Shown: positions 15,001 to 39,597, counted from the stretch's first letter. The stretch is 64,000 nt of DNA from an uncultured Chloroflexia bacterium (GCA_963774265.1 CAVZDU010000005.1:96001-160000), one strand, 5' to 3'. Notes: generated from the letters alone by a model not told the origin. Numbers and translations are program-made.

Positions 15001-15051
15001 TCGAACGGGGCGGGAAGCTTCAATTTCGGGTTGGTGCCGGGGACGCAATAG
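1..15051 (+). CDS. Giant modular secreted/surface protein, 5'-partial, about 5000 aa once three frameshifts (~1163, ~6880, ~8020) are repaired. Modules: BNR/Asp-box beta-propellers, choice-of-anchor X-like domains, DUF11-like, PA14, about 7 CARDB, PPC, DPND-type domain, invasin-like Ig, 2 PKD, pmp-like GGAI/FxxN repeats, choice-of-anchor Q
   Basis: ORFs 45-1202, 976-6900, 6864-8126 and 7918-15051 continue one another's domains across the junctions. The first shift is an extra G (gcgtgggatctgg) compared with the internal duplicate at ~3503 (gcgtggatctgg). Motifs seen: SxDGGxTW, DDGAHGDxxAGDGVW, FATVTDDGARLWVD, PDLQV...ESNETNN, DPNDIVGP, YTWDFGDG, DQRGVARP...CDIGSFE. Confidence 0.85.
110..1030 (+). 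repeat. BNR/Asp-box repeat block 1 (~159-bp, 53-aa units)
   Basis: Recurring unit PAITQAxDGKLWxVWxSxRSGNYDLWYKTSxDGGATWSADTQLT. Confidence 0.85.
2467..3375 (+). repeat. BNR/Asp-box repeat block 2, part of a ~2.35-kb internal duplication of the giant gene
   Basis: Same 53-aa unit. Flanking DNA is near-identical between ~1030-1340 and ~3372-3680. Confidence 0.85.
12953..13440 (+). repeat. Tandem duplicated PKD domains (~246-bp period)
   Basis: Two near-identical copies of ATNDSPTELGxATNFAATITAGTNATYTWDFGDGASGTGAQ. Confidence 0.85.
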
Positions 15052-22341: not shown

Positions 22342-22459
22342 GTGACTCAAATCTTGGTGGGATTCTCGGTGTCTGCACTCATGTTAGCACAGCGCGCGGT
22401 GGATGCAAGTGACGGCGGGGTTGTGCTGGAGTCCGAGTTGAATGTTTGCGCGGCGTTGC

Positions 22460-22488
22460 TTGACAAGGACCGCGGCTTCGGGCATAAT
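22460..22488 (+). promoter_or_regulatory. Sigma70-type promoter of the pheST leader
   Basis: TTGACA-17 bp-CATAAT immediately upstream of the T-box. Confidence 0.8.
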
Positions 22489-22492
22489 CTGG

Positions 22493-24349: not shown

Positions 24350-24384
24350 GGTGTGTTCTCCTTCTTGGGCTAGTCGCCTCACGG

Positions 24385-24412
24385 CTGCGCAGCATGACGT
24401 CATGCTGCGCAG
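24385..24412. repeat. Perfect 28-bp palindrome upstream of the integrase
   Basis: ctgcgcagcatgac|gtcatgctgcgcag. Confidence 0.85.
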
Positions 24413-24424
24413 GGCGTCAGTCGG

Positions 24425-24679
24425 CTAGTCAGCGTCCTTTAGTAACAGGTTAGCGGGCTGCGCGGCCAGCTCCACGCCAATAGCGAAGCAAGCTTCGCCA
24501 TACGCGGCAGCGTAAGCGCTGCCGGCAGCCTCCAGGTCCAGGACCAGGGCGTCATGCTGCGGTGCGACGGTGCGCAGCTTCTCAATCAGGGCGCTGAAGG
24601 CGGCGCTCTCGGCCTGCGCGCGGTCGCTTGCTTGCACGGTTACGACGCCCTCGAAGGCGTCTGCAAAGGTCTTTGTCAT
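24425..24679 (-). CDS. Hypothetical protein (84 aa)
   Basis: AAAGGA Shine-Dalgarno before MTKTFADAF; element-like codon usage. Confidence 0.6.
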   Translation of the reverse strand: MTKTFADAFEGVVTVQASDRAQAESAAFSALIEKLRTVAPQHDALVLDLEAAGSAYAAAYGEACFAIGVELAAQPANLLLKDAD

Positions 24680-24704
24680 GGTCGGATTTCCTTTCTCGGC
24701 GATT

Positions 24705-25028
24705 CTATTGTCGTGTCTTGCCATTGCGGCGCAGCGACCTGGTCGGCTGCGGGTCATAAAACATGCCTTCAGGCAGCGCGGCCCAGTCGCGCGCCTTGCG
24801 CCAATTGAAGTCAGGATCATGGAACGCGCACGGCTCGAAGGCGCCCGCGCGGCGGCAGTTGCCAGCCGCGTAGGCCGAACAGGTGCAGATATCGCGCAGC
24901 ATGTCAGGTTGCGCGCCGCCATGCGCATAAGCGTTGACCTGCGGGCAAAGTTCTCGTTCGTCCAGCCATGTAACATGATTGCGTTGCACGCCGGGTAGCT
25001 CTTTCCAGGTCACGGTCAAGATAGCCAT
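24705..25028 (-). CDS. Hypothetical Cys-rich protein
   Basis: AAGGAGG Shine-Dalgarno before MAILTVTW; CxC...C...C pattern. Confidence 0.55.
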   Translation of the reverse strand: MAILTVTWKELPGVQRNHVTWLDERELCPQVNAYAHGGAQPDMLRDICTCSAYAAGNCRRAGAFEPCAFHDPDFNWRKARDWAALPEGMFYDPQPTRSLRRNGKTRQ

Positions 25029-25231
25029 TGTCAAAGCCCTCCTTGTGATAGGGCCGGGCATTATGGTATGATGTGCCCGGCGTATGGTTCTGCCATTGCC
25101 GACCGGCTCGGCGTGCGTGTCAGCGCTCGCCGGGCCTCTTCTTTCCTTGGTCTCTCGCTGTGCCCTCCTTCCCCTGCTCTATCGTGTCTTGCTTATGGTC
25201 GAAGCTGCCGACCTGTAAGCATGTAAGCAAG

Positions 25232-26042
25232 TTAGTTAGTAACGTCTCGGCCCATGACGTGCCGGCGCAAGATGGGCGTCGCTTGCGCGGGCGTCATGGT
25301 CAGTTGCCAGCCCAGGCGCCGGCGCTCAGGATCGCGCCATGCGGCGACGCCCAGGTCGATCAAGATATCGCGCTTCTTGGCGAAGGCGGCGCGCGCTGCC
25401 GGCGCGGGCGGGATGCCTTGCGCGCTCTCGGACGTGCCGACATTCGCGCACTTGGTCACGAAGGCCAGCAGGTCGACCAGTTCGGCCTGCGCTGCGTTTG
25501 CCTTCTGGATGCGGCCGGCCGTCGCGGGCTTCGCTTGGATTGACCAGCACGGGCGCGGCGTTGACGGTCGGCCTGCCGACATAGCGGTCGCCGTCCAGGT
25601 CGCGCTGCGTGATAGTTTCGATCTGCCATAGCAGGGCGTCGGCCAGGCGCAGGCGCCATAGCCAGGCCAGCGCCAGGACCACGGCGAAGACGATCACGGG
25701 CACGCGCCAGGACCAGCCGGCCGCCCAGGCCAGCAGGCCGGCCATGACGCCGAAGGCGCAGGACGTCAGGAAGGCTTGCGCTGCCGGCACTTGGACGTCA
25801 CTTTCCCAGGTCACGGCGCGCTGCGCCTTCCTGGTCTCGTATTGCGCGACGGATTCGTCTTCCTGGTGCGCTTGCGGCAGGTGTAGCTGGATCACGGGTG
25901 CCGGCAGGCGCGGCCTCCAGCCTTCAGGCGGCCTCACGTCTTCAGGCAGCGCCGGCAGCAGCTCGCCTTCGATCTCTTGGCGGCTCAGGTTGCGCTGCGT
26001 GTAATGCGCCGGTATTGTGTCGATCAATCGCCTAGTTGCCAT
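25232..26042 (-). CDS. Hypothetical membrane protein with two TM helices (frameshift near 25520)
   Basis: ORF 25326-26042 continues in ORF 25232-25582; hydrophobic hairpin and a DLDGD motif. Confidence 0.6.
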
Positions 26043-26222
26043 GCTGTGTATCTTCCAAAAACAAACGCCGGTCGGCTCGGCTGATATGTCGCCAAGCTGA
26101 CCGGCGTAAGTTGCACGGCTGCGCTGTAATGGTAGAATCGTTATAACCGTGTCGCCGGTAGCTTCGGCGGTTGCGGCCAGGGCCGCGCAGGTGTTAGTAG
26201 CACTTGCGCGGTCTGCTTTTCG

Positions 26223-26402
26223 TCAGTCTTCGGTCGCTTCTCCTTGATACTTCGGTAACTCGATCTCGCCATTGGTCCAGGCGCTCAGCAGCCGGCGCAA
26301 GACTTGCGCCAGCGTGATATCTTCGGCCTGCGCCTTCTTCTCGGCTCGGTCGAAGAGTTCCTGCGGTAGTCTGAAGCGAAAGCTCTTATCCTTCGGTATC
26401 AT
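26223..26402 (-). CDS. Ribbon-helix-helix (CopG/Arc-like) DNA-binding protein
   Basis: KSFRFRLPQELFDRAEKKAQAEDITLAQVLRRLL pattern. Confidence 0.7.
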   Translation of the reverse strand: MIPKDKSFRFRLPQELFDRAEKKAQAEDITLAQVLRRLLSAWTNGEIELPKYQGEATED

Positions 26403-26494
26403 GTGTCCCTCATGTGTCACTGAAGGGACTATAACCCAAGGCGACACAGGTGTCAAATTGGCGAAGTGCCGCGCAAGTCGGTTGTCAAGGTGCG

Positions 26495-26528
26495 TAACTG
26501 GCATTATCCCTAGTGATAATGCCAGTTA
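26495..26528. other. lox/dif-like site: perfect 14-bp arms around a 6-bp spacer
   Basis: taactggcattatc-cctagt-gataatgccagtta. Confidence 0.7.
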
Positions 26529-26542
26529 TAAGAAGTTATAGC

Positions 26543-26791
26543 CTACTCGGTCCGACCGACGCGCAGCCGACCGTGCTGCTCGATCTCGCAGATCGCCGAC
26601 GCCATGACTGCCGCGCTCATGCTGCGCCAGGCGACTTCTGACAGTTGGCCTTGACTGTGGCGCATGGCTGCGTCGTGTAGCTTGGCCCATTCGATGACGT
26701 CCAGCGCGGCCAGCACTTCTAACGTCAGCTCTTCAACTTGCTGCGCCAGGGTGGGCTTGATCGCGGCGCGACGCGTCGTGACGTCAGCCAT
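26543..26791 (-). CDS. Hypothetical protein
   Basis: 82-aa ORF co-oriented with its neighbours. Confidence 0.45.
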   Translation of the reverse strand: MADVTTRRAAIKPTLAQQVEELTLEVLAALDVIEWAKLHDAAMRHSQGQLSEVAWRSMSAAVMASAICEIEQHGRLRVGRTE

Positions 26792-26871
26792 GCGGGCCGC
26801 GGTCGCAAACGAAAGTTCGCCGCGCTGTTACGTTCTCGCCCATTTTCGCACCTTTCCCCCGCGCGGGAGGG

Positions 26872-27336
26872 TTAGAAACCGTTTATCGCCAGGTCGTCAA
26901 AATCTCTGCCATACGTCCGTTGACACCACAGCTCAATGAGCGGTGCGTTTTCGTCTGCCCATGCGTTGGCCTCGCGTTCCTGTTGTGCGTTGACACTTGC
27001 CGCCTTCGCATTACTGCGCGCCGCACTCGCAGGCCCAAGTTGCGCGTCAAGTTCGGCTATCCGCGCGACACGTTCGGCTTGTTCCCGTTCGGAGATGTGC
27101 CGCCGCGCGCAATGGCCTAGCTTGATGTGCGCGATTTCATGACTCAACGCCCAAAGCAAGCTGGGCTTGCTGGGGTCGCCATGTATCGCGATGCGCGGGT
27201 CAATCACGATGTGCCAGGCGCGTTCACCTTCGCCCATGCGCGCGCACGCCAGCCCGCCAGGCTCGTACGCCGGGTAGACAATGCACCGTTCACCGCACAT
27301 TTTCGATGCTACACGCGCCAAGAAAAAGACGTTCAT
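26872..27336 (-). CDS. HExxH zinc metallopeptidase-like protein (ImmA/IrrE-like)
   Basis: LSHEIAHIKLGH followed by EREANAWA. Confidence 0.65.
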   Translation of the reverse strand: MNVFFLARVASKMCGERCIVYPAYEPGGLACARMGEGERAWHIVIDPRIAIHGDPSKPSLLWALSHEIAHIKLGHCARRHISEREQAERVARIAELDAQLGPASAARSNAKAASVNAQQEREANAWADENAPLIELWCQRTYGRDFDDLAINGF

Positions 27337-27947
27337 TACCCCGCCTCTCTCTCTGATTCCAGGTCGTTGACCGTCAGGGTGGTTGCCAACGCGCACGCTT
27401 GGGAGACGATCACGAAGGTAAGTTGTGCCTCTTCCACCACGCGCCGCGCCTCTTCCCGTAGGGTGTCGCGAGACTCACCCGCAGCCTGCTTTTGCTCCGC
27501 CGCGAATGGCGCGATACTTTGCCGCGCACGTTCTAGCGCGGCGTTAGCTGCCACGTTCGCGCGTGTCTCAAAGCGCCGTAAGAACGGGATACGCGTTTCC
27601 AGTTCCGCGCGCCGCTGTAGCCAAGCGTCAAGTTGCGCCTCTTCCGTCGGCTCGTGCTCCAAATGCGCGGCCAGCGCCCGCGTCGCTTCAAGCACTACGC
27701 CATGCAACCGCGCTTGCTCTGCGGCCGTCGCGCGCACATCGTCAGCCAGGGCTTGCGGGACAAGCGCAACAAGTTCCGCCTTGATTTCCGAAACCCGCTC
27801 GACCGTGGGGCGCAGCGCTTCAGCCCGGCGTTCCGCATCGGCGTGGGCAACTGCGATATTTGCCGCGTCGATTGTCGCTTGCCGGTCCTCTGTCATGGGT
27901 TCCAACCCAATCCAACCCGACCACCTTGAGAAAAATCCGCCTGTCAT
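27336..27947 (-). CDS. Hypothetical alpha-helical/coiled-coil protein
   Basis: AAAGGA Shine-Dalgarno; rich in A/E/R; abuts the next gene. Confidence 0.6.
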   Translation of the reverse strand: MTGGFFSRWSGWIGLEPMTEDRQATIDAANIAVAHADAERRAEALRPTVERVSEIKAELVALVPQALADDVRATAAEQARLHGVVLEATRALAAHLEHEPTEEAQLDAWLQRRAELETRIPFLRRFETRANVAANAALERARQSIAPFAAEQKQAAGESRDTLREEARRVVEEAQLTFVIVSQACALATTLTVNDLESEREAG

Positions 27948-27992
27948 GCTGTGTTCCTTTCTGCCCGCTTAGGGCTGCCATTTGCTAACAAA

Positions 27993-28583
27993 CTAGAAGG
28001 TGATAAATGCGAATAGCTTCCTGCTGTCTGGCACGCGCTCGGCATACCAGCAGGCAAGCGCTGCGCTCAGGACGAGATCGTCGTGTACGCCCTCGCGCCA
28101 GGCAGCATAGCTGTCATGGGCCGTTTGCGGGTCGATCTTGACCTTGAAGTTTAGAAGCTCGGTTATCATGGTCGGGCCTAAAGCCAGGCCGTCAGCGACC
28201 TTCAGCCGGCCAGTCTGCAAGACGGTCAGCAGGCCGAAGACTAGATCGCGCTTCGGCACGCGCCAATGACCGGCTTCGCAGACGGGCTTGTCGCCGCCCG
28301 TAATGGTTACGGGTGCGACGGCCAGCTGCGCCTGGTGCAGCAGGTCGACCACGGGCGCGCCTACGCCGGTCGCATCCGCGACGATGATGTAACGCCCGTC
28401 GATCTCTGGACCTTCGACCAGCTCTTTGACGCGCGCGACGATGGCCGGGTATGGCGTGCCTAACTTCGGGCGTTCGATATGCCGCAAGGCGTAGGTTATC
28501 GGCTCGGTCTCCAGGCGCTCGATCACGGTTATAGCCGTGTAGTCGGTCGCTTGGCCCAGGTCCAGCCCGACAAAGTATGTCAT
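27993..28583 (-). CDS. Terminase large-subunit nuclease (RNase H-fold) domain encoded as a separate gene
   Basis: GLDLGQATDYTA, ADATGVG, HDDLVLSAALA; own GGAGG Shine-Dalgarno. Confidence 0.8.
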   Translation of the reverse strand: MTYFVGLDLGQATDYTAITVIERLETEPITYALRHIERPKLGTPYPAIVARVKELVEGPEIDGRYIIVADATGVGAPVVDLLHQAQLAVAPVTITGGDKPVCEAGHWRVPKRDLVFGLLTVLQTGRLKVADGLALGPTMITELLNFKVKIDPQTAHDSYAAWREGVHDDLVLSAALACWYAERVPDSRKLFAFITF

Positions 28584-28585
28584 AT

Positions 28586-29336
28586 TCAACCTCCGAATAG
28601 CGGCTTGACGTCTGCCGTAATGCTCGACATGACTAGGTCATAGCCGAAGACCTGGTCGACGGTTTCGACAAATTCGCAAAGGTATTCTTGGCGATACCAG
28701 AAGTCGCCAAGCGCGGCGCGCTCTTCTGCCAGGAAGGCCGGCGCGATCGCGCGGGCAGTCGTGCGCTGTGACCTTGACACGCTGCCAGCCGGCGCCGCCA
28801 TTGGTCCAGGTATCGAAGTACCAGCCGCGCTTGCCGAAGGGCGTGCTCAGGCCGACCAGCCGCCCGCCCGATACGGCCAGCATGGGCCGCACGCTGAAGT
28901 ATAGGTCGTCGGGTACGCGCGCGGCTTCGTCCAGGACCAGTAGATTGACGCCACTGTAGCCGCGGATCGTCTCTTCCTTGCCCGGCAGCGATACGATGCG
29001 GCTGCCGTTCTTCAGGTGCAGCGCCAGGGCGCTCTCTGCGGCGCTAGGTGCTTCTGTGGCGAATTGCGCGTAGAATGACATGACCTTGCGGAAAAGCTCG
29101 CCAGACTGGCGCAGCGACGGCGACAGCAGTAAGACCAGCGCAGGCGGGCGATAGATTGCTTCCCACAAGGCCGCGCAGGCGGTCACGGTTGACTTGCCGG
29201 CCTGCCGGGTGCATAACAGCAGCGACCGCGGCGCTCGGCTGCGCAGTAGATCACGCTGCCATTGGTCGGGGTCCAGGCCGGCGCGGGCCATGACCAGCGA
29301 TGGGTCAAGCGCGACGGCCAGGTCGTCAGTCAACAT
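28586..29336 (-). CDS. Terminase large-subunit ATPase domain (one indel near 28748)
   Basis: Q motif (WQ), Walker A CTRQAGKS, Walker B LLVLDEAA, coupling motif LSTP, and QEYLCEF after the frameshift. Confidence 0.85.
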
Positions 29337-29811
29337 TGCGCAGCGCCTCCGCGACGGCGATACGGGCGTCAGGGTACGGCGCCAGCGCGTCAAGGATCAC
29401 GCCGCGCACGCGCTGCCAGTCGGGCGACTGGACCAGCACGGCGACTTGCACGCGCTCGGCCTCCAGTTCTCCGACGATGCGCCCGACCAGCTCCAGGTTC
29501 TGCCGCGCTTGGCTGACAGCTTGCAGCGCGGTGCGCAGGTCTTGCGCCTCGTAAGCGATTTTCAGTATGTTCATGGTGACGATCTGCAAGCGCTTCATTT
29601 GCGCCAGCAGATCATCGGCCTGCGCGACCTCGCGCGCTTCCTGCGCCTTCGCCAGCGCCGCGGGAAGGTGCTTCTCTTTGTGCCGGCGCAGCGACGTCTC
29701 GATAACGTCGTATAGCGTCGCAATCTCGCGATTTGAGACGCTACCGGCAGCCAGCGCACGGTCGATAGCTTCGCGCTGCGGGTGGGTGCAGATCGTGCAA
29801 GGTCGCGTCAT
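29326..29811 (-). CDS. Putative small terminase / HTH protein
   Basis: CTICTHP zinc motif, HTH (NREIATLYDV...SLRRH), helical tail; overlaps the start of the terminase ATPase gene. Confidence 0.6.
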   Translation of the reverse strand: MTRPCTICTHPQREAIDRALAAGSVSNREIATLYDVIETSLRRHKEKHLPAALAKAQEAREVAQADDLLAQMKRLQIVTMNILKIAYEAQDLRTALQAVSQARQNLELVGRIVGELEAERVQVAVLVQSPDWQRVRGVILDALAPYPDARIAVAEALRNVD

Positions 29812-29825
29812 TTTCGTTGCCTCAT

Positions 29826-30146
29826 TTATTCGTCTTCGACCAGCCAGTCGGGCGCCATGCCGGCGAAGGGGTTAGACTCTGCGTCGGGCTTGTGCGCGCC
29901 ATACCTGCGCAGGTGCTTCGCCAGGTTCTCCTGGAGGGCGTACAGTAGCAGCCAGGCGTTATGCGGCGTCATGATGATGCGGGCGTCGACCTGGACCGTC
30001 AACGGGCTAGGCAGCAGCTTGGCGAAGTCGATCACAATCTCAGACTCAGCATGGCTGATAATCGCGTGATTGCTGTAAACCGGCTCCAGCTTCGCAGGTA
30101 GCCAGACGGCGACCTGCGGGGCGCTGCGCTTCTTATGCTTGCTCAT
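29826..30146 (-). CDS. DUF3467-like protein
   Basis: VYSNHAIISH...EIVIDF...ARIIMTP pattern. Confidence 0.7.
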   Translation of the reverse strand: MSKHKKRSAPQVAVWLPAKLEPVYSNHAIISHAESEIVIDFAKLLPSPLTVQVDARIIMTPHNAWLLLYALQENLAKHLRRYGAHKPDAESNPFAGMAPDWLVEDE

Positions 30147-30212
30147 ATCTTCGATCTCCTGTGCTTGGGCCGGCCTGCGACCTCTTGTCAGCAGGCCGGC
30201 GCAGGTGTATGC

Positions 30213-30743
30213 TTAGGCCAGGTCTTCGTCAGTCGGGCCTGGATCGGCTAGGTCGTCGTCACTCAGTTCGGGCCAGCCGGGCGGCTCGGCGTGCGAAGTC
30301 TGCGCTACGGTCGCCCGCGGTTGCATCGCGGGCGGCTGCGCGTCTGGCGCTGGCTGTGCCCTTCTGGTCGGCAGCGCGGCGCGGACCGGCAGCACATCTT
30401 TGACCTTGTTATAGGTCTCGCCGTCGCTGCCGCGCTCGGTGCTGACGACGATCTGGACGCGCTTGTCCAACAGGTCGTCGCTGTCGAAGGTGTAGTCGTC
30501 GGGAATGGCACGCCCGCCAAAGATCGCGGCCTTGGCCCAGGCCCATAGCTTCGCCTTGGGTGACAGCTTGCAGGACGTCCAGCCGGTCAGCGACCGATCG
30601 CTGAAGTCAGGGTCCAGCAGGTCGAAGCGGATCTTAAGCTGACTACCGAATTGCCCTTCGGCCTGCTCTACGTTGCCGACCTGCGCCATATAGACGCCAG
30701 CCGGGATAGGTTCATACTTCGTCTGTTCAATTTTGATTCCCAT
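30213..30743 (-). CDS. Putative phage-type single-stranded DNA-binding protein (DUF669-like)
   Basis: YEPIPAGVYMAQV N-terminus, beta-rich core and acidic C-terminal tail; next to the primase. Confidence 0.55.
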   Translation of the reverse strand: MGIKIEQTKYEPIPAGVYMAQVGNVEQAEGQFGSQLKIRFDLLDPDFSDRSLTGWTSCKLSPKAKLWAWAKAAIFGGRAIPDDYTFDSDDLLDKRVQIVVSTERGSDGETYNKVKDVLPVRAALPTRRAQPAPDAQPPAMQPRATVAQTSHAEPPGWPELSDDDLADPGPTDEDLA

Positions 30744-30788
30744 TGCGATTGCTCCTAAGTGTGCTGTGTGCCTTGCGGCTTTGGGTTG

Positions 30789-30852
30789 CGTCTGCGTGTG
30801 TGCGGTCCAGGCACGTCTGCGTTTGTGCGGTCCAGGCACGTCTGCGTTTGTG
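30789..30852. repeat. 2.5 tandem copies of a 25-bp unit (iteron-like)
   Basis: cgtctgcgt(g/t)tgtgcggtccaggca at 30789 and 30814, partial copy at 30839. Confidence 0.8.
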
Positions 30853-30855
30853 TTC

Positions 30856-31206
30856 TCAGGCGGCAGCCTCCAAGTCGGCTACATACAGCGTGCCGGTCGT
30901 CGGGTCGCCCCCGACGATGCGCAGCCCGCGCTCGGCCAGGTACTCGCTCGGCGTGAAGTCCCACGATAACGGGATATGCAGCGGTTGCGCGTTCGGGTCG
31001 CTGCGCCAGGACAGCCGGCGCAGGTAGTCGAGCAGCTCGGCCTTATGCTCGGCCAGGCCGGCGCGCAGATCGTCGTCTATGGCGCCCTTCGGCGCTTCGA
31101 CATACAGTCTCTCGCCGCGCGCGGCAAGCCCGATTTGCCGGCCTTCGCACTCGTTTAGCAGGTCAGATAGCTCTTGATAATGTCGCTTGTAAGAAGGCAT
31201 TGTCAT
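30856..31206 (-). CDS. Small primase-associated hypothetical protein (TubC-N-like)
   Basis: LYVEAPKGAIDDDLRAGLAEHKAELLDYL; overlaps the primase stop codon. Confidence 0.55.
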   Translation of the reverse strand: MTMPSYKRHYQELSDLLNECEGRQIGLAARGERLYVEAPKGAIDDDLRAGLAEHKAELLDYLRRLSWRSDPNAQPLHIPLSWDFTPSEYLAERGLRIVGGDPTTGTLYVADLEAAA

Positions 31207-33551
31207 AGCTCGAAGACCTCCACTTCGACAGGCGCGACTACCTGGTCGTCAGTCTGTGCCGTTATGCCGTCGCTGCCGTTTGTGCCGTTAATATAGAGAG
31301 TATCGCCTTGGGTCTTCTCCAGTTCTTCAGGTATCGGCAGCCCATAGGCGACCAGCCAGCCGACAAGGTCGGCCGCGCTGATATGCCAGCCCTTCGCTTT
31401 CGACGTGCGCTCGGCCTTCAGGCGCATCTTGCCCAGGACGCGACCGACGCGGCGCGACGTTACGCTATCCGGGTCCATGTCGGCCTCGATTTCCTCGACT
31501 ACTTCCTTCGCGGCCTGCGTGATGGCTGAAGTCTTGAAGGTAAATGCCTTCTCGACAGTCTCCTTATTAACGGCACTAATGGCATTGGCGGCATAACGGC
31601 ACAAGGCGCGAATGACGATGGCGGTCAGGTCGCCGATCTCCAGATCGACGCGCTCTTCCTGGTAGGCTAGGCTCAGGGCTTCGATGCGGTCCCATAAGCC
31701 GGCTGTGCCGTTATCGTCCAGCCATAAGGCGACGGCCAGGATCGCGCGCCAAGGCTCCAGGTTGCGACCAGTCAGGCGGCCGCGCTCGTTAACCAGCGTC
31801 TCATAGCGCGGCAGCTCAGGCAGCCGGCTCAGGCCCAAGGCCCATAGATCGTCAAGTAAGCTGCGCCGGTCGTGCGGCCATAGCTCATAGTCCAGCGGGT
31901 CAGCGTTCGCCCGGTAGCGGTCGGGTGTGCGGATTAACGGCACGATGATTGTGCGGCTTGCCAGGATTGCGTCGGGTAGCTTAGTTGCGCTGAAGAGACG
32001 CGGGCAGAAGGTGTTGACATAGCGTGTGCGCCATTGGCGCTCGCCGGCAGACTCTTTTACCGGCACGGTATTGCCGCGCCGGTTGCCGGCCAGTAGCAGC
32101 GCGCGCTTGTCAGGATCACTTGACTTTGCGTCGCTCATGTTCTCGGCGTCGTCGAAGGCCAGCATGGCGCCATAGTCGGCCAAATCGCGCAGACTTGCAA
32201 AGCTGCCGCCCGCCAAGATCACTTGGCCCAAGTAGCCAAGTTCAGCATCGACGGTCAGTAACTGCGTCTTGCCGCTGCCGCGGTCGCCGTTCGGCCATAG
32301 GAAGCCGACCACGTTGAAGGCGTCCAGAAAGTAGGAAGCCAGCACGTAGCAGGCGTTTAGCTCAGCCATTGTGCGCTGGTCAGCCAATGACTTGTTGAAG
32401 TCAATGAAGCGGTCGACAGTGTCAGTCACGCGGGCGAAGACGCCGGCCGGGTCGGGTCGCTGACCGGCTTTATATGCCTTGACAGCGCGGGCGCTCCATA
32501 GCTTCTCAGCGGGCGGGATTTCAGGCAGATGCACTTCGATAGCCAGCTCCTCGAAGCTGGCGTCGCCGCCGTCGCCAAAGATGCGGCCATCGTCACGGAT
32601 CACGAAGACCTGTCGCGTTGTCGTGATAATAGGCGGGTTATGCCGCACGATCTCGCCGGTCTTCGATATGCTCTCGGTCTGCGTGACCTTGACGTATAGC
32701 CAGGTCGCCGCGTAGGCGCGGCCGTCGATCAAGGCCAGCGGGCGGCCTATCATGCGCGGCTCGGCCTCCAGTAATTCGATCTGTGCCGGCGACGGCGTCG
32801 GCAGCGGTCGCGGTGCTTCGACCAGGGCTTCCAGCTCGGCGCGGGTATGACCGGCTGCGAAGAAGTCGTCAATACCTTGTTTCTTGCCGCCCTCGCCGGG
32901 CGGCAGATAGACAACGGTTACGCGCGCGCCGCGGCGCTGTAGGAAGGGCGTCAGGCGCTTCAGGGCTTGTTGCACTTCAAACTTGCGCGTTACGTCACTG
33001 TCGAAGACGATGCGCACAGCGCGGCCCTTCAGGGCGACGTCTTCCCAGTCGGCTAGGGCAGTTGTGCCGCCCACGTCATTGCTGCCGCGCCAGTTCCAGA
33101 CGCCAAGTAGGGCGATAGCGCAATAGCCTTGCGAAGCCAGCGCGTCGGCCTTCTTCTGGCCCTCTGTCAGCCATAGGTCGACGGTCGGGTCGCCAAGTTG
33201 CGGGCGACAGGTAGGCGGGCAGTCCAGGCGCATCGAAGCCTTCTTCGGTTGCTCATACTTCAGGACGTCCTGCGGGTAGGTGCCGTCTGGAAGCTTCGGC
33301 TTGTCCTTCTTGTCGAAGACGCGCGGCGCATCGGGTCGAATCACATACAGGCCATTACTGGCATCGGGCGGGCAGACGGGCAAGACCAGCGCCGGCACGC
33401 GGCGCTGCGCAGGTGCAAAGCCCAGGTCGGCCAGTTCTTCGCGGGCCGTCGCGGTGAAGTAGCCGCGCGCTTGGATCACGGCGTCGCTGATAGCCGATTC
33501 CTCGCGCAATATGGCGCGATGCTCAGGCGACAGGTAGCTTCTGTCTGGCAT
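31203..33551 (-). CDS. Replication protein: DUF3854/Toprim-like primase fused to a P-loop NTPase
   Basis: LWLTEGQKKAD, IVFDSD, KQGIDDF; Walker A GDRGSGKT and Walker B LAFDDAE. Confidence 0.85.
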   Translation of the reverse strand: MPDRSYLSPEHRAILREESAISDAVIQARGYFTATAREELADLGFAPAQRRVPALVLPVCPPDASNGLYVIRPDAPRVFDKKDKPKLPDGTYPQDVLKYEQPKKASMRLDCPPTCRPQLGDPTVDLWLTEGQKKADALASQGYCAIALLGVWNWRGSNDVGGTTALADWEDVALKGRAVRIVFDSDVTRKFEVQQALKRLTPFLQRRGARVTVVYLPPGEGGKKQGIDDFFAAGHTRAELEALVEAPRPLPTPSPAQIELLEAEPRMIGRPLALIDGRAYAATWLYVKVTQTESISKTGEIVRHNPPIITTTRQVFVIRDDGRIFGDGGDASFEELAIEVHLPEIPPAEKLWSARAVKAYKAGQRPDPAGVFARVTDTVDRFIDFNKSLADQRTMAELNACYVLASYFLDAFNVVGFLWPNGDRGSGKTQLLTVDAELGYLGQVILAGGSFASLRDLADYGAMLAFDDAENMSDAKSSDPDKRALLLAGNRRGNTVPVKESAGERQWRTRYVNTFCPRLFSATKLPDAILASRTIIVPLIRTPDRYRANADPLDYELWPHDRRSLLDDLWALGLSRLPELPRYETLVNERGRLTGRNLEPWRAILAVALWLDDNGTAGLWDRIEALSLAYQEERVDLEIGDLTAIVIRALCRYAANAISAVNKETVEKAFTFKTSAITQAAKEVVEEIEADMDPDSVTSRRVGRVLGKMRLKAERTSKAKGWHISAADLVGWLVAYGLPIPEELEKTQGDTLYINGTNGSDGITAQTDDQVVAPVEVEVFEL

Positions 33552-33711
33552 TGGTTGTCTCGATTTCGGTCTGTTGGGTAGTCTGGTCGGCAGCCTGCGC
33601 GCGTTGCCGCGCGGCCAGGTCCAGCAATAGGGCATAAACCGCGCCCAGGCGCCGCTTGCGCTCTTCGTCGGTCATGGGTGCGGCGGTCGGTCGGTCAGCT
33701 TTGGCGGTCAT
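33523..33711 (-). CDS. Small hypothetical protein
   Basis: AAGGAG Shine-Dalgarno; overlaps both neighbours. Confidence 0.5.
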   Translation of the reverse strand: MTAKADRPTAAPMTDEERKRRLGAVYALLLDLAARQRAQAADQTTQQTEIETTNARQKLPVA

Positions 33712-33889
33712 GCTGCGCTCCTTGCGGCTCGGCAGCCGGCGCCGGCTCGGTGGATAGCTCGCGCTTGACAGCGTCGCGCACAAGCTGCGCCAGAACGGCT
33801 TCTTCAGGTTCGCGGCGCTTCTCGGCAAGCTCGGCCAGCGCCAGGCGCTCCATTAGCGGTAGTCTTATCCTTTGCCAGCCTACGGTCAT
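33695..33889 (-). CDS. Small RHH-like DNA-binding protein
   Basis: IRLPLMERLALAELAEKRREP...LAQLVRDAV; GGAG Shine-Dalgarno. Confidence 0.5.
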   Translation of the reverse strand: MTVGWQRIRLPLMERLALAELAEKRREPEEAVLAQLVRDAVKRELSTEPAPAAEPQGAQHDRQS

Positions 33890-33899
33890 ATGCATCTCC

Positions 33900-33939
33900 A
33901 AAAACAAGAATGGGCGTGACTTTCGATCACGCCCATTCT
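33900..33939 (-). terminator. Intrinsic terminator/attenuator ahead of the replication operon
   Basis: 13-bp perfect stem agaatgggcgtga/tcacgcccattct followed by TGTTTTT on the minus strand. Confidence 0.65.
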
Positions 33940-33968
33940 CATATGGTTTGCCGTTCGCTTAGGTCTAT

Positions 33969-34671
33969 TTAGACATTTCGCACTTTTCGCACAAGCCTAG
34001 TTTCGATCTCTCGCTTGATCTCGGCTTCGATCTCAGGCCAAGTCTCACGGTAGCGCTCCAGGGTCGACCGCGCCTTGCCGACCAATTGCGCAGCTTCGTC
34101 TCGGCTATTGCCGTTCTCCAGGTAATAGCGAAGATACTTTCTCAGTTCGCCCTCCATGACCTCGCGGCGTGGGTCGCCAGGCTCCAGGTCTGCCAGTCGT
34201 GGCGCGCCGTACGTCGCGCGCTCGCGGCGGCTCGGCCTGCGTCTGGTCGATCACCAGCCCGCGCTGCGTTAGTTCGGCCTGGACCTTCTCCCATAGTGGC
34301 GCCATACTCGAAAAGTCTTCGACCAGTTCGCTTTGCGCGGGCTTGTCGCGATCAGTCTTGGTATACTGGACGATGCGCGCACTCGCAGTTAACAGGGTGT
34401 AGTCGGTTAGCTTCTCGGCTTGAAACATGCCGCCCCTGAATCCCTGCCTATCGGGCGAATATCGGCCTATGACTTCGATCACGATAACGGGCGTCTCTTC
34501 TGGTAGGTCCAGTGTCGACCAGTTGCGCACCTTCCTGGTAACATCGGCCATACTGGTAGGCCGGTCTTCGTGGGGATACACCACAGGACGAAGGTCAGGG
34601 TCTTCGGCCAGGACGGCCAGCACGCGCCGGGCGATCTGCGCCGGTGTGCCCTTGCATTTGATCTCTTCCAT
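33969..34671 (-). CDS. Hypothetical protein with a C-terminal HTH (frameshift near 34225)
   Basis: ORF 34105-34671 joins the frame ending SRDEAAQLVGKARSTLERY. Confidence 0.55.
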
Positions 34672-34711
34672 CGTCTCACCTCTGCGTTTGCGTTTGCGTT
34701 TTTGGCCGGCT

Positions 34712-35689
34712 TCAGTCTCGGCGTGTGATGTACGGAATGTGCAAGCTCTTGCTCGCCTTGCGCTTGACTTCGTCGCCGCGCCGGTCATAGTTGGCGGTCG
34801 TCGTCGGGCTGCTGTGGCCCATTAGCTTTTGCACCGTAACTAGGTCGTTACCATTATCTAGCAGGTTGCCCGCGAAGGTGCGTCGGAAGTCATGCCAGCT
34901 GAGCGGTGCGACGCCGGCCTGCTCGCGGCGCTTCTGTAGCATTTGCGCCAGCGCTTCGTCGCTCGGACCGTGCCCGGCGTCGATCGCGCCGCCCTTATTG
35001 ATCGCATAGAATAGCGGCCCTGCGGCGTCGCCGCGCAGGGCCAGCCAGTCGGCCAGATAGCTTGCGGCGCCATTGAAGACATAGACGACGCGCGGCTTCT
35101 GGCCCTTGCCGAAGATGTGCAGATCGCCTTCGTTGGCGCCCGTATTGATGTAGTCAGCTCGCTTCAGGCCGGCCAATTCGGACCGGCGCGCGCCGGTCGA
35201 CCAGCCCAGGGCGATGATTGCCGCGTCGCGGGCGCCTGCGGGCGACGGATCGTTGACGCAGGCTTCCAGCAGCGCCTTGACTTCGCCGGTCGTGATATGC
35301 CGGCCCTTCTGTGTGCGCTCGCCGCGCACGTCGCGCACGCCAGCGACGCGCTCGGCTTGGGCGACGATCTCGGCACGCTCAGCGCGTTCTTTGTCGTCGC
35401 GGGCGGGTCGATCTTGCGCCTTGTCGGACAGCCGGCGCGCATACCAGCGGATCGCGGCCAGCGTGCGGTTGATCGTTCTTGGCGCCTTGCCGGCCTGCTG
35501 AAGCTCGGCCGCGTAGGATTCGACCAGCAGCTTTGACAATGGCCGGCTGCCGCGCCAGGTCTCGAAGGTGTGCAGATCGCGCAGATAGCCGCGCTTCGTG
35601 TTCAGCGACCGCAGGCGCGGGTCGCTCTCTAGCTCGGCAGCGATGCGCTGAAGGGCGTCATTCTCGATAACGGTCAGGCTTGCGGTCAT
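34712..35689 (-). CDS. Tyrosine recombinase (XerD-like)
   Basis: RDAAII...TGARRSEL, GKG, HDFRRT, LMGHSSPTTTANYDRR. Confidence 0.95.
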   Translation of the reverse strand: MTASLTVIENDALQRIAAELESDPRLRSLNTKRGYLRDLHTFETWRGSRPLSKLLVESYAAELQQAGKAPRTINRTLAAIRWYARRLSDKAQDRPARDDKERAERAEIVAQAERVAGVRDVRGERTQKGRHITTGEVKALLEACVNDPSPAGARDAAIIALGWSTGARRSELAGLKRADYINTGANEGDLHIFGKGQKPRVVYVFNGAASYLADWLALRGDAAGPLFYAINKGGAIDAGHGPSDEALAQMLQKRREQAGVAPLSWHDFRRTFAGNLLDNGNDLVTVQKLMGHSSPTTTANYDRRGDEVKRKASKSLHIPYITRRD

Positions 35690-35746
35690 GGTGTTTACTC
35701 CTTGGCGCTTGCGCTTGTCTTCTTACAAGTTAGATTATCACTAGCG

Positions 35747-35774
35747 ATTATAACACAGAACAGGCGCCTGTCAA
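35747..35774 (-). promoter_or_regulatory. Consensus promoter for the tyrosine recombinase operon
   Basis: Minus strand TTGACA-16 bp-TATAAT with an extended TG; inverted repeat ggcgcctg/caggcgcc (35763-35788) overlaps the -35. Confidence 0.8.
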
Positions 35775-35804
35775 GTCGACCAGGCGCCCGTAAAAGCTCC
35801 GACT

Positions 35805-35833
35805 TTGCCCTTATCGGCCTTTAGTCTTACAAT
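35805..35833 (+). promoter_or_regulatory. Element-encoded outward promoter pointing at pheS
   Basis: TTGCCC-17 bp-TACAAT, 60 bp inside attR. Confidence 0.65.
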
Positions 35834-35876
35834 TCGCAAGCTCAAAACGCGCCGCGATGGCGTAAGGCATTGTATC

Positions 35877-35914
35877 TATTGTCAATGGGAAGCTGTGACG
35901 GAGGGCGCGTTTTG
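35877..35914. other. attR junction (element arm tattgtcaatgggaag, CT core at 35893-35894, then the 3' half of the T-box terminator)
   Basis: gacggagggcgcgt pairs with acgcgcacttcgtc at 22776-22789 and is followed by TTT. Confidence 0.88.
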
Positions 35915-36016
35915 CGTTAAGAGGGGCTTTCCCAATCGCAAAGCCACAAACAAGCACAAAGATCACAAAGGACGTCGAACTGTTCATGCGAGGCGTAGTA
36001 TGTCGGAGGTGTCAGT

Positions 36017-37069
36017 ATGCACGATAACCTGAGCAAGCTGCAGGCTGAGGCGCTGGAGGCGCTGGCCGCGGCGACGGAGGCGGACGCGCTCGAAGCGTGG
36101 CGCGTGCGCTATCTGAGCCGAAAGGGCGGCGCGTTGTCTGCGGCCATGGATGTGATCGGCAAGTTGCCGCGCGAGGAACGACCCGCATACGGCCAGGCGG
36201 CCAACGAGGTGAAGGCCAGCCTGGAAGAGGCGTTCGGCGCACGGCAGGAAGCGCTGAAGCAGGAGGCTCTGGCCGCGGAGCTCGCCGGTGGGATCGTGGA
36301 TGTCACGCTGCCCGGCCGGCCGCCCAGCATCGGCCACCTGCACATCACGACGCAGAACCTGCGCGAATATCGAGCCGTCTTTGCGGAGATGGGCTTCGAG
36401 GTCTACGACGCGCCGGATGTCGAAACGGACGAGAACAACTTCGGCCTGCTGAACATTCCGCCTTACCACCCGGCTCGCGATATGTGGGACACCTTCTGGG
36501 TCAGCCAGGACGTGCGGCCCGATCCGGGACAGCGCACCTTGGTGATGCGCACACACACCAGCCCGGGCCAGATTCGCGCGATGCGGGAGCGCTGCCCCGA
36601 GCCGATCCGCGTCATTCTGCCGGGCAAGTGCTACCGCTACGAGCAGATTACGGCGCGTTCGGAGCACCAGTTCTACCAGATCGAAGGGTTGGCGGTGGGC
36701 AAGAACATCCGCCTGACCGATCTGATCGGCACCCTCAAGCAGTTCGCTGTGAAGATGTACGGCGCAGGCGAGCTGCGGGTGCGCGGCAGCTACTTCCCCT
36801 TCACTGAGCCGAGCATCGAGGCCGACATGAATTGCGTTCTGTGCGACGGGAAGGGGTGCGGCGTATGCAAGTATACCGGCTGGCTGGAGATCGCCGGCGC
36901 GGGTATGGTGCACCCGGTCGTGCTGCGGAACGGCGGCTACGACCCCGACGTGTTCACCGGCTTCGCGTTCGGCATGGGTGTCGAGCGGCCGGCCATGCTG
37001 CGGCATGCAATCAGCGACATCCGGTATTTTTACTCGAACGACCTGCGTTTTCTCGGGCAGTTCGGTTGA
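36017..37069 (+). CDS. pheS: Phenylalanine--tRNA ligase alpha subunit
   Basis: HPARDMWDTF, RTHTSPGQ, FYQIEGL, YFPFTEPS, GFAFGMGVER. Confidence 0.98.
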   Translation: MHDNLSKLQAEALEALAAATEADALEAWRVRYLSRKGGALSAAMDVIGKLPREERPAYGQAANEVKASLEEAFGARQEALKQEALAAELAGGIVDVTLPGRPPSIGHLHITTQNLREYRAVFAEMGFEVYDAPDVETDENNFGLLNIPPYHPARDMWDTFWVSQDVRPDPGQRTLVMRTHTSPGQIRAMRERCPEPIRVILPGKCYRYEQITARSEHQFYQIEGLAVGKNIRLTDLIGTLKQFAVKMYGAGELRVRGSYFPFTEPSIEADMNCVLCDGKGCGVCKYTGWLEIAGAGMVHPVVLRNGGYDPDVFTGFAFGMGVERPAMLRHAISDIRYFYSNDLRFLGQFG

Positions 37070-37104: not shown

Positions 37105-39597
37105 ATGAAACTACCACTGAGTTGGCTGAAAGATTACGTCGATATCACCATGACGCCCGAGGCATTGGCGGAAAGGCTCACGTTGGCCGGGCTGGAGGTC
37201 GAATCGATTACGAAGATCGGTGAGTTCTGGGACCGCGATAAGATTTTCGTGGGTCAGATTCTTGAGGTGGTGCGCCACCCGGACGCGGAGCGGCTAACCC
37301 TCGTACGCGTCGACTACGGCGCGGCGCAGCCCATGACCGTCGTTACCGGCGCGCCCAACATGATGCCCTACATCGGACAGGACCTGTCCGGCGGCAAGGG
37401 GCCCAAGGTCGCGTACGCGATGTCGGGCGCGCGGTTGGTCGACGGCCACAGCGAAGAGCGCAAGATCGTGCGGTTGAAGCCGAGCAAGATTCGCGGGGTT
37501 GTCTCCGAGGGCATGGTCTGCTCGGAGAAGGAGCTGGACCTCAGCGACAGCCACGAGGGCAACCTGGTGCTGCCCGACGATGCGCCGGTGGGAATGCCGT
37601 TGTTCGATTACATGGGCGATGTCGTGCTCGACTATGACGTCAAGGGCGCGATCGCGCACTTGCAGTGCATCTATCGGCATCGGCGCGGGAGGTGTCCGCC
37701 ATGACGGGGCAGCCGCTGCGCCGGGACGTGATGACGATCCTGGAACGGGAACCGGTGGCGATCACGCCGCGATGCGGATTTCACCGGCATCGAGATCGAA
37801 GCCCCGGACTTGTGCCTGCGCTACTCGGCCGCGTTGATCGAGGGCGTGAAGGTCGGGCCTTCGCCCATGTGGATGCAACAGCGCCTGCTGCGCGCGGGGA
37901 TGCGCCCCATCGATAACGTCGTTGACGTGACGAACTACGTGATGCTCGAGCTGGGGCAGCCGTTGCACGCGTTCGACTACGACTTGTTACGCCAGCGCGC
38001 AGGGGGTGGCCGGCCCACGATCATCATGCGCCGCGCCCATCCCGGCGAGCGTCTGAAAACGCTCGACGGCCAGGACCGGCAGCTCGACCCCGAAATGCTG
38101 ATGATCACCGACACCGCGGGCTCCATCGCGGTGGCCGGGGTGATGGGCGGCGCGGATACCGAGGTCAGCGCTGGCACGAGCACTATTCTGCTCGAGTCGG
38201 CCAACTTCAACTTCCTGAGCATTCGACGGACCGGCCAGATGTTGGGGCTGCGCAGCGAGGCAGGTAGTCGCTTCGGCAAGCGGGTGGACCCGGAACTGAC
38301 GGTCAAGGCGCTGGCGCGTGCGTGCCAGTTGCTGGAGCAGCTGGCCGGCGGTAAGGCGCGGCCCCTCTACGGCGACAACTACCCAGGCAAGACCGGCGCG
38401 AATCAGATCGAGCTCGACCCAAGCTATGCCAACCGGCTGCTCGGCGTGGATCTGCCCGCGGCTGAGATGGCCCGCATCCTGAGGGCGCTTGAATTCATCG
38501 TGGAAAGCTCGGGCCCGGTCCTCAGCGTTGGCGTACCCAGCCACCGGCAGGATGTGAATATCCCGGCTGACCTGGTGGAGGAGATCGGGCGCATCTACGG
38601 TTACGACCGGCTGCCGAGCACCCTTCTGGAAGACGAGTTGCCGCGGACCCCGCGCAACGTGGCTCTTGAGGCTGAGGAGAAGGTGCGCGACGTGCTGGTC
38701 GGGTGTGGGTTGGACGAGGTGATCACCTACTCGATGGTCGATGTGCGCGACGAGGCCAAGTGGCTGGGCGAGGCGACCACAGCCCTGCAGCCGCACGTAA
38801 CGGTGTTGAACCCGCTGTCGGCTGAGCGCGGCCATCTGCGCGTGACGCTGCTGCCGTCTTTGATCGAGACCGCGCAGGCAAATCTACGGTTCGGCGAACG
38901 GGTTGCGATCTTCGAGATCGGCCGCGTGTATCTGCCACGGCCCGATCAGACGCTACCTGCCGAGCCGCGGCGGCTGGCTGTCCTGCTCGTTGGCCCGCGA
39001 GAGGCCGGGACCTGGTTGGGACACGATGCGGAGCCAATGGGCTTTTTCGATCTCAAGGGTGTGGCCGAGACGTTGTTGCTCCGCCTCGGGCTGACGAATG
39101 TGGCCTGGGAGCGAGGCAGCCACCCGACGATGCACCCCGGGCGAACCGCACAGATTGTCGTCAACGGCATAGCCGTGGGCATGCTGGGCGAGTTGCATCC
39201 GCGGGTGCGAGTCGCGTTCGACCTACCAAACCTGCCCGTTGCAGCAATGGAACTGGATCTCGAAGCGTTGCTCTCCGGTTGGGGCGCAAAGCAAGAGATG
39301 TCTGACTTCTCGTCCCAACCGGCCGTGTTTGAGGACCTGGCGTTGATCGTGGACGAGAGCGTGCCTGCCGCCCAGGTGGCCAGCCTGATTCGCCAGACGG
39401 GCGGGAAGCTGCTGGTCGATCTACGATTGTTCGACGTGTATCGCGGCGGGCAGGTGGCGCAGGGAAAGAAGAGCCTTGCTTACTCGCTCACCTTCCAGGC
39501 GCTGGACCGGACGCTGACCGCAGAGGACACCGCAAAAGCGCGGCAGAAGATCGTGGCGCGGCTGGAGCGGGAGGCGGGCGCGACGCTGCGCGCATGA
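37105..39597 (+). CDS. pheT: Phenylalanine--tRNA ligase beta subunit (indels near 37670-37780)
   Basis: [59 protein letters not shown]...KKSLAY. Confidence 0.95.

Follow-up and report, generated by a model that had tools for sequence, protein, structure and literature searches.

A mobile element splits the T-box terminator hairpin of the pheST operon in an uncultured Chloroflexia bacterium and may supply a replacement promoter and a re-pairing leader

The window analyzed here, a stretch of 64,000 nucleotides from an uncultured Chloroflexia bacterium (GCA_963774265.1, CAVZDU010000005.1:96001-160000; positions are counted from its first letter), contains the essential pheST operon on the plus strand. 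pheS (36017-37069) is preceded by a GGAGG Shine-Dalgarno sequence (36005-36009) and was found in one copy in the assembly, which is 84% complete and probably contains indel errors. pheT (37105-39597) was read with two local frame changes near 37660-37790. Between 37640 and 37800 the reading passes into another frame for approximately 40 codons and then returns, i.e., two compensating frame changes, which are probably assembly indels; if they are real, an essential gene is altered. Two very large plus-strand ORFs were observed elsewhere in the window, at 976-6900 (1974 aa) and at 7918-15051 (2377 aa), the latter with 84-nt tandem-like repeats near 14062-14275.

In several phyla, most aminoacyl-tRNA synthetase genes are under the control of T-box leaders. 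We found a T-box leader on the plus strand at 22520-22795, extending from stem I to the antiterminator and the 5' strand of the terminator. Our data indicate that this leader matches RF00230 with 69.9 bits (E 4e-15 in a 601-nt search), a score below the curated gathering score of 93, so that an Rfam run over the whole window at the gathering score returned no T-box match. The lower score is consistent with the absence of one terminator strand and with the long insertions in the alignment. The motif AACCAGGGUGGCACCGCG and the stem I motifs AGAGA, GAA, and AGUA aligned across the full model (positions 1-219), UUC stands at the position aligned to the specifier region, and an antiterminator with a UGGN bulge forms in the fold of the left-end region. 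The host pheST promoter, TTGACA-17-CATAAT (22460-22488, plus strand), has 11 of 12 consensus matches and lies in a stretch conserved in same-genus relatives. Both the promoter and the T-box now lie 13 kb upstream of pheS and the promoter is cut off from the gene by an integrated element.

The undisturbed arrangement can be seen in relatives. The leader stretch was matched in 28 of the 41 genomes searched (the window's own counted), and pheS adjoins the leader in 10 of the 11 relatives' loci that were fetched. In 8 of these 11 loci the order is T-box motif, terminator hairpin, T-tract, and pheS, with the terminator hairpin and U-tract intact before pheS. Since the leader runs on into the terminator and pheS in relatives, the element lies inside the pheST leader. 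In the window the terminator is split: its 5' strand, CGCGCACTTCGTC, remains at 22777-22789, as identified from the fold of the deduced empty site and from relatives with the same hairpin, while its 3' strand and U-tract are found at 35897-35913. The orphaned 3' strand, GACGGAGGGCGCG (35897-35914, plus strand), includes the U-tract at 35910-35913 followed by a G. When the two strands are rejoined, the deduced empty site folds as a terminator with a stem of 6 + 7 bp, one mismatch, and the loop CCUGU (-20.3 kcal/mol). These data indicate that a mobile element splits the hairpin that normally switches the essential pheST operon on and off.

The spacer of 94 nt that separates the terminator from the pheS ribosome-binding site (35922-36015) is C- and A-rich. 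It is absent from three contigs of the metagenome run X2, which have 8 nt in its place, and in relatives the length of this spacer ranges from about 20 to more than 300 nt.

Homology with relatives stops at approximately 22792-22795 on the left and restarts at 35893 on the right. Two contigs from run X2 match the window from 35893 onward with the end of a T-box leader directly before, i.e., an empty site. Thus the element announced in the preliminary description exists, and its right junction falls at 35893/35894. We placed attL at 22786-22808 from the end of homology and an arm match, with a host B arm, a CT crossover at 22791-22792, and an element P' arm at 22793-22808. attR (35877-35905), placed from the arm match and a loose contig end in run X2, consists of an element P arm at 35877-35892, a CT crossover at 35893-35894, and the start of the host B' arm. 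The P arm, TATTGTCAATGGGAAG, and 22793-22808 form an inverted repeat around the CT with 14 of 16 positions matching, and no long direct repeat flanking the element was found. Inverted-repeat ends around a central dinucleotide are, judged from the sequence, the layout of a serine-recombinase attP. The CT crossover falls centrally within the 5-nt loop of that terminator. The arms and junctions thus show that a 13.1-kb element was integrated by a large serine recombinase (LSR) at CT inside the loop of the pheST T-box terminator. The junction data together with the empty-site contigs also establish that ggcgcgttttg (35904-35914), as had been proposed, is the 3' strand of the host terminator plus its U-tract, an assignment on which relatives and the terminator fold agree. 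This host 11-mer is conserved across the genus, at 11 of 11 positions in one relative (L005) and 10 of 11 in two others (L002 and L007).

The integrated element (22793-35892) was delimited by profile matches, synteny with a related element (L014), and empty sites in relatives and in the two X2 contigs. It encodes an LSR, an Arc-like repressor, two TerL-like halves, a DUF669-like protein, a DUF3854 protein (31203-33635, minus strand, profile match), and a tyrosine recombinase (34712-35689, minus strand, with Phage_integrase and SAM-like N domains). Each of the 8 element ORFs supported by homology is encoded on the minus strand, i.e., points away from pheST. The TerL-like terminase is present as two ORFs holding its N and C domains (27993-29393), and likewise in L014 (6038-7492); either the split is conserved or it is an indel error common to both long-contig assemblies. 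The tyrosine recombinase gene has a promoter with 12 of 12 matches, TTGACA-16-TGnTATAAT (35747-35774, minus strand, TG present), whose -35 hexamer lies in the loop of a palindrome at 35762-35788. A 33-nt motif with CTAGTGATAAT occurs in three copies that are approximately 79% alike (26503-26535, 31167-31199, and 35716-35751), one of them just downstream of the tyrosine recombinase promoter and the other two in opposite orientation. These motifs are probably operators of an element regulator, e.g., the Arc-like protein encoded at 26223-26504. No recombination directionality factor was recognized among the element ORFs, and no excised form was seen.

The LSR gene (22493-24352, minus strand, conserved part 22796-24352) encodes the catalytic, recombinase, and zinc-ribbon domains of its class (Resolvase PF00239, Recombinase PF07508, and Zn_ribbon_recom PF13408), with YARVSS near the N-terminus. 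In the integrated state the reading frame crosses attL and runs antisense to the T-box until a stop at 22493, giving a protein of 619 aa whose last 100 residues are antisense T-box. In the deduced excised form the frame continues instead into 35892-35811, giving 547 aa. attP therefore sits within the 3' end of the LSR gene, a layout shared with L014, and the recombinase is one whose C-terminus is altered by integration.

We found that the last approximately 105 nt of the element form a unit of their own (35789-35892), which holds the P arm, the tail codons of the LSR in its excised form, a promoter-like site, and an 11-mer discussed below. Contigs that are approximately 90-92% identical to 34703-35788, one of 13,412 nt from run X4 and one of 1,117 nt from run X2, end their match at 35788, which is also the end of the palindrome. 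Since the match stops there, the last approximately 105 nt are separate from the tyrosine recombinase module. The tyrosine recombinase gene and its promoter region look like a separately exchangeable module. A paralogue of the tyrosine recombinase, 69% identical, is encoded elsewhere in the same genome (G000 contig C2, 821514-822353). In the excised form the right-end unit is contiguous with the LSR gene and constitutes its last 28 codons, up to a stop at 35811-35813, and the 3' UTR. Its G+C content is 0.486, compared with 0.60-0.66 in genes. The LSR tail of the excised form gives a mundane reason for the existence of this segment. As judged from these positions, the unit appears to travel with the LSR and its attP, as a plug adapted to the site would. 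Folding the minus strand of 35800-35900 as a terminator for the LSR gene gave no excess stability (z +0.33).

Within this unit we confirmed a promoter-like site directed toward pheS (P_out, 35805-35833, plus strand), with TTGCCC at 35805-35810, a 17-nt spacer, and TACAAT at 35828-35833. It has 9 of 12 consensus matches and a spacing within the 16-18 nt of sigma-70-type promoters, with only 4 of 6 matches in the -35 hexamer. A consensus scan of 35500-36100 found P_out as the sole sigma-70-like site on the plus strand. On both strands of this interval there are 2 promoter-like sites, the other being the tyrosine recombinase promoter, against a mean of 0.1 in 50 shuffles. The 390 nt at the right end of the element and the 122-nt host leader contain no further plus-strand promoter-like site, and scanning 35500-36100 returned no canonical terminator between P_out and pheS. 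Over the 13.7 kb from 22400 to 36100, 11 promoter-like sites were found compared with 3.1 expected by chance. A lone site with 9 of 12 matches, a call made on sequence, is weak evidence for a promoter. Among sequencing runs, five matched the locus, all of them DNA and with word shares of 0.05-0.07, and no RNA run did.

The locus can be regarded as a natural experiment in which a living cell has an essential operon detached from both its promoter and its tRNA sensor. Since pheST is severed and the cell lives, the last approximately 105 nt of the element must replace both promoter and sensor. Furthermore, because pheS is single-copy and the element genes point the opposite way, a promoter borne by the element is needed, and P_out is the only candidate near the junction. 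Of the earlier proposal that the element supplies a replacement promoter, the need for one and the position of P_out as the sole outward candidate therefore stand, and we infer its use by pheST. Taken together, pheST is probably transcribed constitutively from a weak P_out, with a predicted start at approximately 35839-35841 and without sensing of tRNA-Phe.

The element 11-mer caaaacgcgcc (35843-35853, plus strand), found by complement search, is the exact reverse complement of the host 11-mer, as the preliminary description had reported. We asked how often such complementarity arises by chance. When the 60-nt element leader was shuffled preserving dinucleotides and compared with the 123-nt host leader, perfect complementarity of at least 11 nt arose in 22 of 20,000 shuffles, and against the terminator 3' strand alone in 1 of 20,000. 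Among sliding pairs of 60 and 123 nt in the window, 17 of 3190 contained complementarity of at least 11 nt. The site at 35843 is the only 11-mer on either strand of the 64 kb that complements any part of 35896-35918, apart from that part's own complement. When one mismatch is allowed, two matches in the window are what is expected (mean 2.3; two or more in 70 of 100 shuffles). The pairing energy of the real leader with the orphaned strand is -23.5 kcal/mol, which is equalled or exceeded by 1224 of 12788 natural 60-mers of the window. Our data thus indicate that the exact 11-nt match is rare while the strength of the pairing is ordinary.

The 11-mer has as its core ACGCGC, the hexamer that also forms the 5' strand of the host lower stem (22776-22781), and its flanks pair better than the host's own. 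Two other origins of the 11-mer were considered and rejected. Capture of host DNA was rejected since only 8 of 11 bases match the host 5' strand, flanking similarity is absent, and the position relative to the crossover is wrong. A recombinase-binding site was rejected since the 11-mer lies 41-51 bp from the crossover, a distance that usual att half-sites do not reach.

The preliminary description had predicted a hybrid RNA structure across attR, and in our folds the 11-bp pairing is indeed part of the predicted minimum-free-energy structure. In both the minimum-free-energy and centroid folds of 35840-35925 the putative transcript is predicted to start with a three-way junction that the 11-bp helix closes. 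This fold has an energy of -32.4 kcal/mol (z -2.85), and 2 of 200 shuffles are as stable. The pairing stays when 100 nt of additional 5' context are included (z -2.64), and in a 201-nt leader the G-C core has a pair probability of 0.95-0.99. Folding the full 181-nt leader, however, gave a structure no more stable than shuffles (z +0.39; 136 of 200 as stable). The helix begins at +1 to +4 of the predicted transcript, the 5' end itself being predicted. Part of the same proposal was that the structure could sequester the U-tract. This is mechanistically weak and unlikely, as an intrinsic terminator relies on its U-tract at the stage when the tract is part of the RNA:DNA hybrid. Bidirectional terminators normally carry an A-tract on their upstream and a U-tract on their downstream side, and a G-C stem that ends at the U-tract looks, in the predicted fold, more like a rebuilt stem than a neutralized one.

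The insertion has left attL with the T-box, its host promoter, and the 5' strand of the terminator, and attR with the 3' strand, the U-tract, and pheST. From these observations we propose the following mechanism. The outward promoter in the last approximately 105 nt would take over pheST in a constitutive, tRNA-blind manner. Bases +4 to +14 of its transcript would pair with the orphaned terminator strand and in doing so would rebuild the lower stem of the old terminator (core ACGCGC/GCGCGU) as the closing helix of the three-way junction. The hybrid stem would act mainly as a protective stem at the 5' terminus and not as a mask of the U-tract, mimicking native T-box mRNA after processing, which begins with the terminator hairpin. 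As a whole, the combination of LSR insertion, pheST driven by P_out, a stem rebuilt by the 11-mer, and a plug adapted to its site is the best explanation we can offer, and we hold it tentatively. That the 11-nt pairing is under selection at all is a separate matter on which we lean slightly toward doubt. The functional reading of promoter and pairing, based on sequence comparison and folding, is plausible but unproven.

The alternative that survives best is coincidence in a spacer, in which the approximately 105 nt are simply the 3' tail and UTR of the LSR gene and in which chance produced both the promoter-like hexamers and the 11-mer. Expression of pheST would in that case come from an unrecognized weak start, or mostly from cells that have rid themselves of the element, and the empty-site contigs, although from another sample, are consistent with such cells. 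The 28 codons of LSR tail ending at the stop already described, a P_out with matches at only 9 of 12 positions when approximately 3 such sites are expected per 13.7 kb, the ordinary pairing energy, the unexceptional fold of the whole leader, and the unrelated end of L014 all point the same way. What coincidence explains poorly is the exactness of the match to the terminator strand, reached in 1 of 20,000 shuffles at a site unique in 128 kb of sequence, and the lack of any further plus-strand promoter-like site in the adjoining element end or host leader. In addition, the tail, at a G+C content of 0.486, is unlike the L014 tail (deduced by eye), and coding constraint on it is unlikely. We consider this alternative unlikely overall, if the most serious of those weighed.

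Another possibility is that P_out is real and that the hybrid forms a rebuilt attenuator, a partial intrinsic terminator blind to tRNA that throttles pheST. When an RNA that stops at the final G ahead of the U-tract is folded, a 6-bp CGCGCC/GGCGCG helix is already present at minimum free energy; the U-tract with its surroundings, GCGCGTTTTGCGTTAA, belongs to the working native terminator and is conserved within the genus; and the arrangement of A-tract and U-tract is typical of bidirectional terminators. Despite stem and U-tract, the hybrid (35843-35914) does not qualify as an intrinsic terminator, as its helix closes a branched loop of 50 nt compared with 3-8 nt in canonical terminators, and the scan of 35500-36100 found no terminator-like site. 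Throttling an essential operon under a weak promoter would also bring no obvious benefit, and we regard this possibility as improbable. Constitutive read-through of all 13 kb from the host promoter at 22460-22488, antisense to the element genes, is very improbable: the promoter is strong in consensus (11 of 12), the antiterminator is intact, and no replacement terminator follows attL, but such a transcript would require 13 kb of untranslated antisense RNA, passage through two long plus-strand hairpins (26180-26214, 16 pairs, and 33907-33939, 13 pairs), and head-on passage through at least two near-consensus minus-strand promoters.

The left end of the element has consequences of its own. The host promoter at attL keeps its antiterminator while the terminator 3' strand is gone, no substitute 3' strand was found in the first 100 nt of element DNA past attL, and the fold of the left end is no more stable than expected (z 0.00). 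Since the terminator is lost and none is substituted, the T-box promoter should transcribe into the element constitutively, antisense to the LSR gene. This antisense transcription may silence excision.

We next considered whether related elements support adaptation to this site. A search of 36 other genomes of the order turned up no second copy of the 211-nt right end. Among 400 other genomes of the class, 6 match 34700-35900, all within the coding part of the tyrosine recombinase and at 64-73% identity. A scan of genome contigs for the LSR returned 10 loci at 26-67% identity, of which only L014 is syntenic, and none of the 10 has a T-box motif. Viral contigs contained no relatives of the LSR or of P0004, an LSR relative described below, and relatives of the tyrosine recombinase at 48% identity or less only. 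The DUF3854 scan of metagenome contigs gave one distant locus, and a search for P0004 across the class gave a best match of 53% identity. The target of the L014 element is different (a peptidase S9 gene, at its 3' end), and the sequence at the end of that element is unrelated to the right end in the window, an alignment of the two giving no meaningful similarity. An outward promoter-like site in L014 overlaps a palindrome and offers weak support at best. The L014 element is flanked by a 15-bp imperfect direct repeat (1180-1194 and 11567-11581) and occupies the final codons of the peptidase S9 gene, with a MoxR ATPase gene immediately downstream and the original C-terminal codons of the peptidase gene remaining at the far junction.

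A protein search returned 976 relatives of the LSR, and among the matches listed the closest full-length relative is P0004, 62% identical. P0004 and its cluster members P0122 and P0124, both full-length members at the 90% level, have tails with RGATL[VI], which corresponds to the T-box motif translated antisense and in another frame; this was so for 1 of the 119 other proteins listed. Judged from these tails, a second LSR lineage also sits in a T-box terminator. Since the tail of P0004 is antisense T-box, targeting of the T-box terminator appears to be a trait of a small LSR clade, and with a host 11-mer that varies little across the genus, one fixed element leader would fit several hosts. We infer on these grounds that the element may be adapted to the T-box site, against which stand the different target and unrelated end of L014 and a left end without compensation. 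A broader proposal, which we think rather unlikely, is that a Chloroflexota LSR clade has specialized for T-box terminator loops, with the attP module serving as a plug of promoter and re-pairing leader and the decapitated T-box promoter, antisense to the LSR, locking the element in.

A full-text literature search returned no report of a mobile element in, or targeting, a T-box leader. Insertion sequences with outward-facing or hybrid promoters drive adjacent host genes and, as at this locus, provide the end of a mobile element as a promoter for a neighboring host gene. They insert largely without specificity and are selected afterwards, whereas here the recombinase fixes the site, so that the end could be pre-adapted, and the leader has its match in host RNA on the far side of the junction. 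Where an integrase inserts into a tRNA gene, the element DNA supplies a restored 3' end for that gene; similarly, the element described here carries a copy of a displaced part of its target, by which function would be kept. The differences are that the tRNA-gene systems have a direct repeat at the crossover while the 11-mer lies 41-51 nt inside the element, and that the strand of the lower stem alone is replaced here and the sensing part of the T-box is not restored. Myxophage Mx8 has its attP inside the integrase gene intP, and there too integration alters the C-terminus of the integrase (here 547 aa excised, 619 aa integrated). Mx8 Int is a tyrosine recombinase, whereas the enzyme here is a serine recombinase and its new tail is antisense T-box.

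The closest documented case in the literature examined is prophage phiOXC141 of Streptococcus pneumoniae, which inserts into csRNA3 and alters the non-coding RNA (bioRxiv 10.1101/2022.09.21.508813). Both cases involve site-specific insertion in a regulatory RNA gene and a junction-spanning hybrid RNA with changed activity. The phiOXC141 target is a trans-acting small RNA and the phage benefits via lowered transformation, whereas here the target is the cis-acting T-box terminator of an essential operon and the hybrid RNA is predicted. The comK prophage of Listeria is an LSR prophage that splits a host gene and acts as a switch (PMC7397523). Such switch prophages share with this locus an element inside a host functional unit that excision would restore precisely. 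They lie in non-essential coding genes that are off while the element is present, while the operon split off here from its promoter and riboswitch is essential, must stay on, and needs a replacement promoter. SPbeta in spsM and skin in sigK are further LSR elements that split host genes. A precedent for the protective stem is the thrS leader of Bacillus subtilis, which is cleaved just upstream of the terminator stem, after which the hairpin protects the mRNA (PMC7913692, citing Condon et al. 1996). On that account the mature thrS mRNA, like the transcript proposed here, starts with a stem made from the terminator 3' strand; in thrS this is the native hairpin released by RNase cleavage, while here the 5' strand is predicted to come from element DNA and to close a three-way junction.

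Taken together, the locus is a site-specific integration with possible compensation. If the promoter and leader are not functional, it still represents a new class of attB and a recombinase with an integration-changed C-terminus. If they are functional, a site-specific element carries RNA-level compensation tuned to its landing site, and its recombinase uses a conserved riboswitch terminator as attB. Should the right end indeed act as a plug for this site, integration would convert a tRNA-sensing operon to element control, with host transcription rewired to stabilize the insertion.
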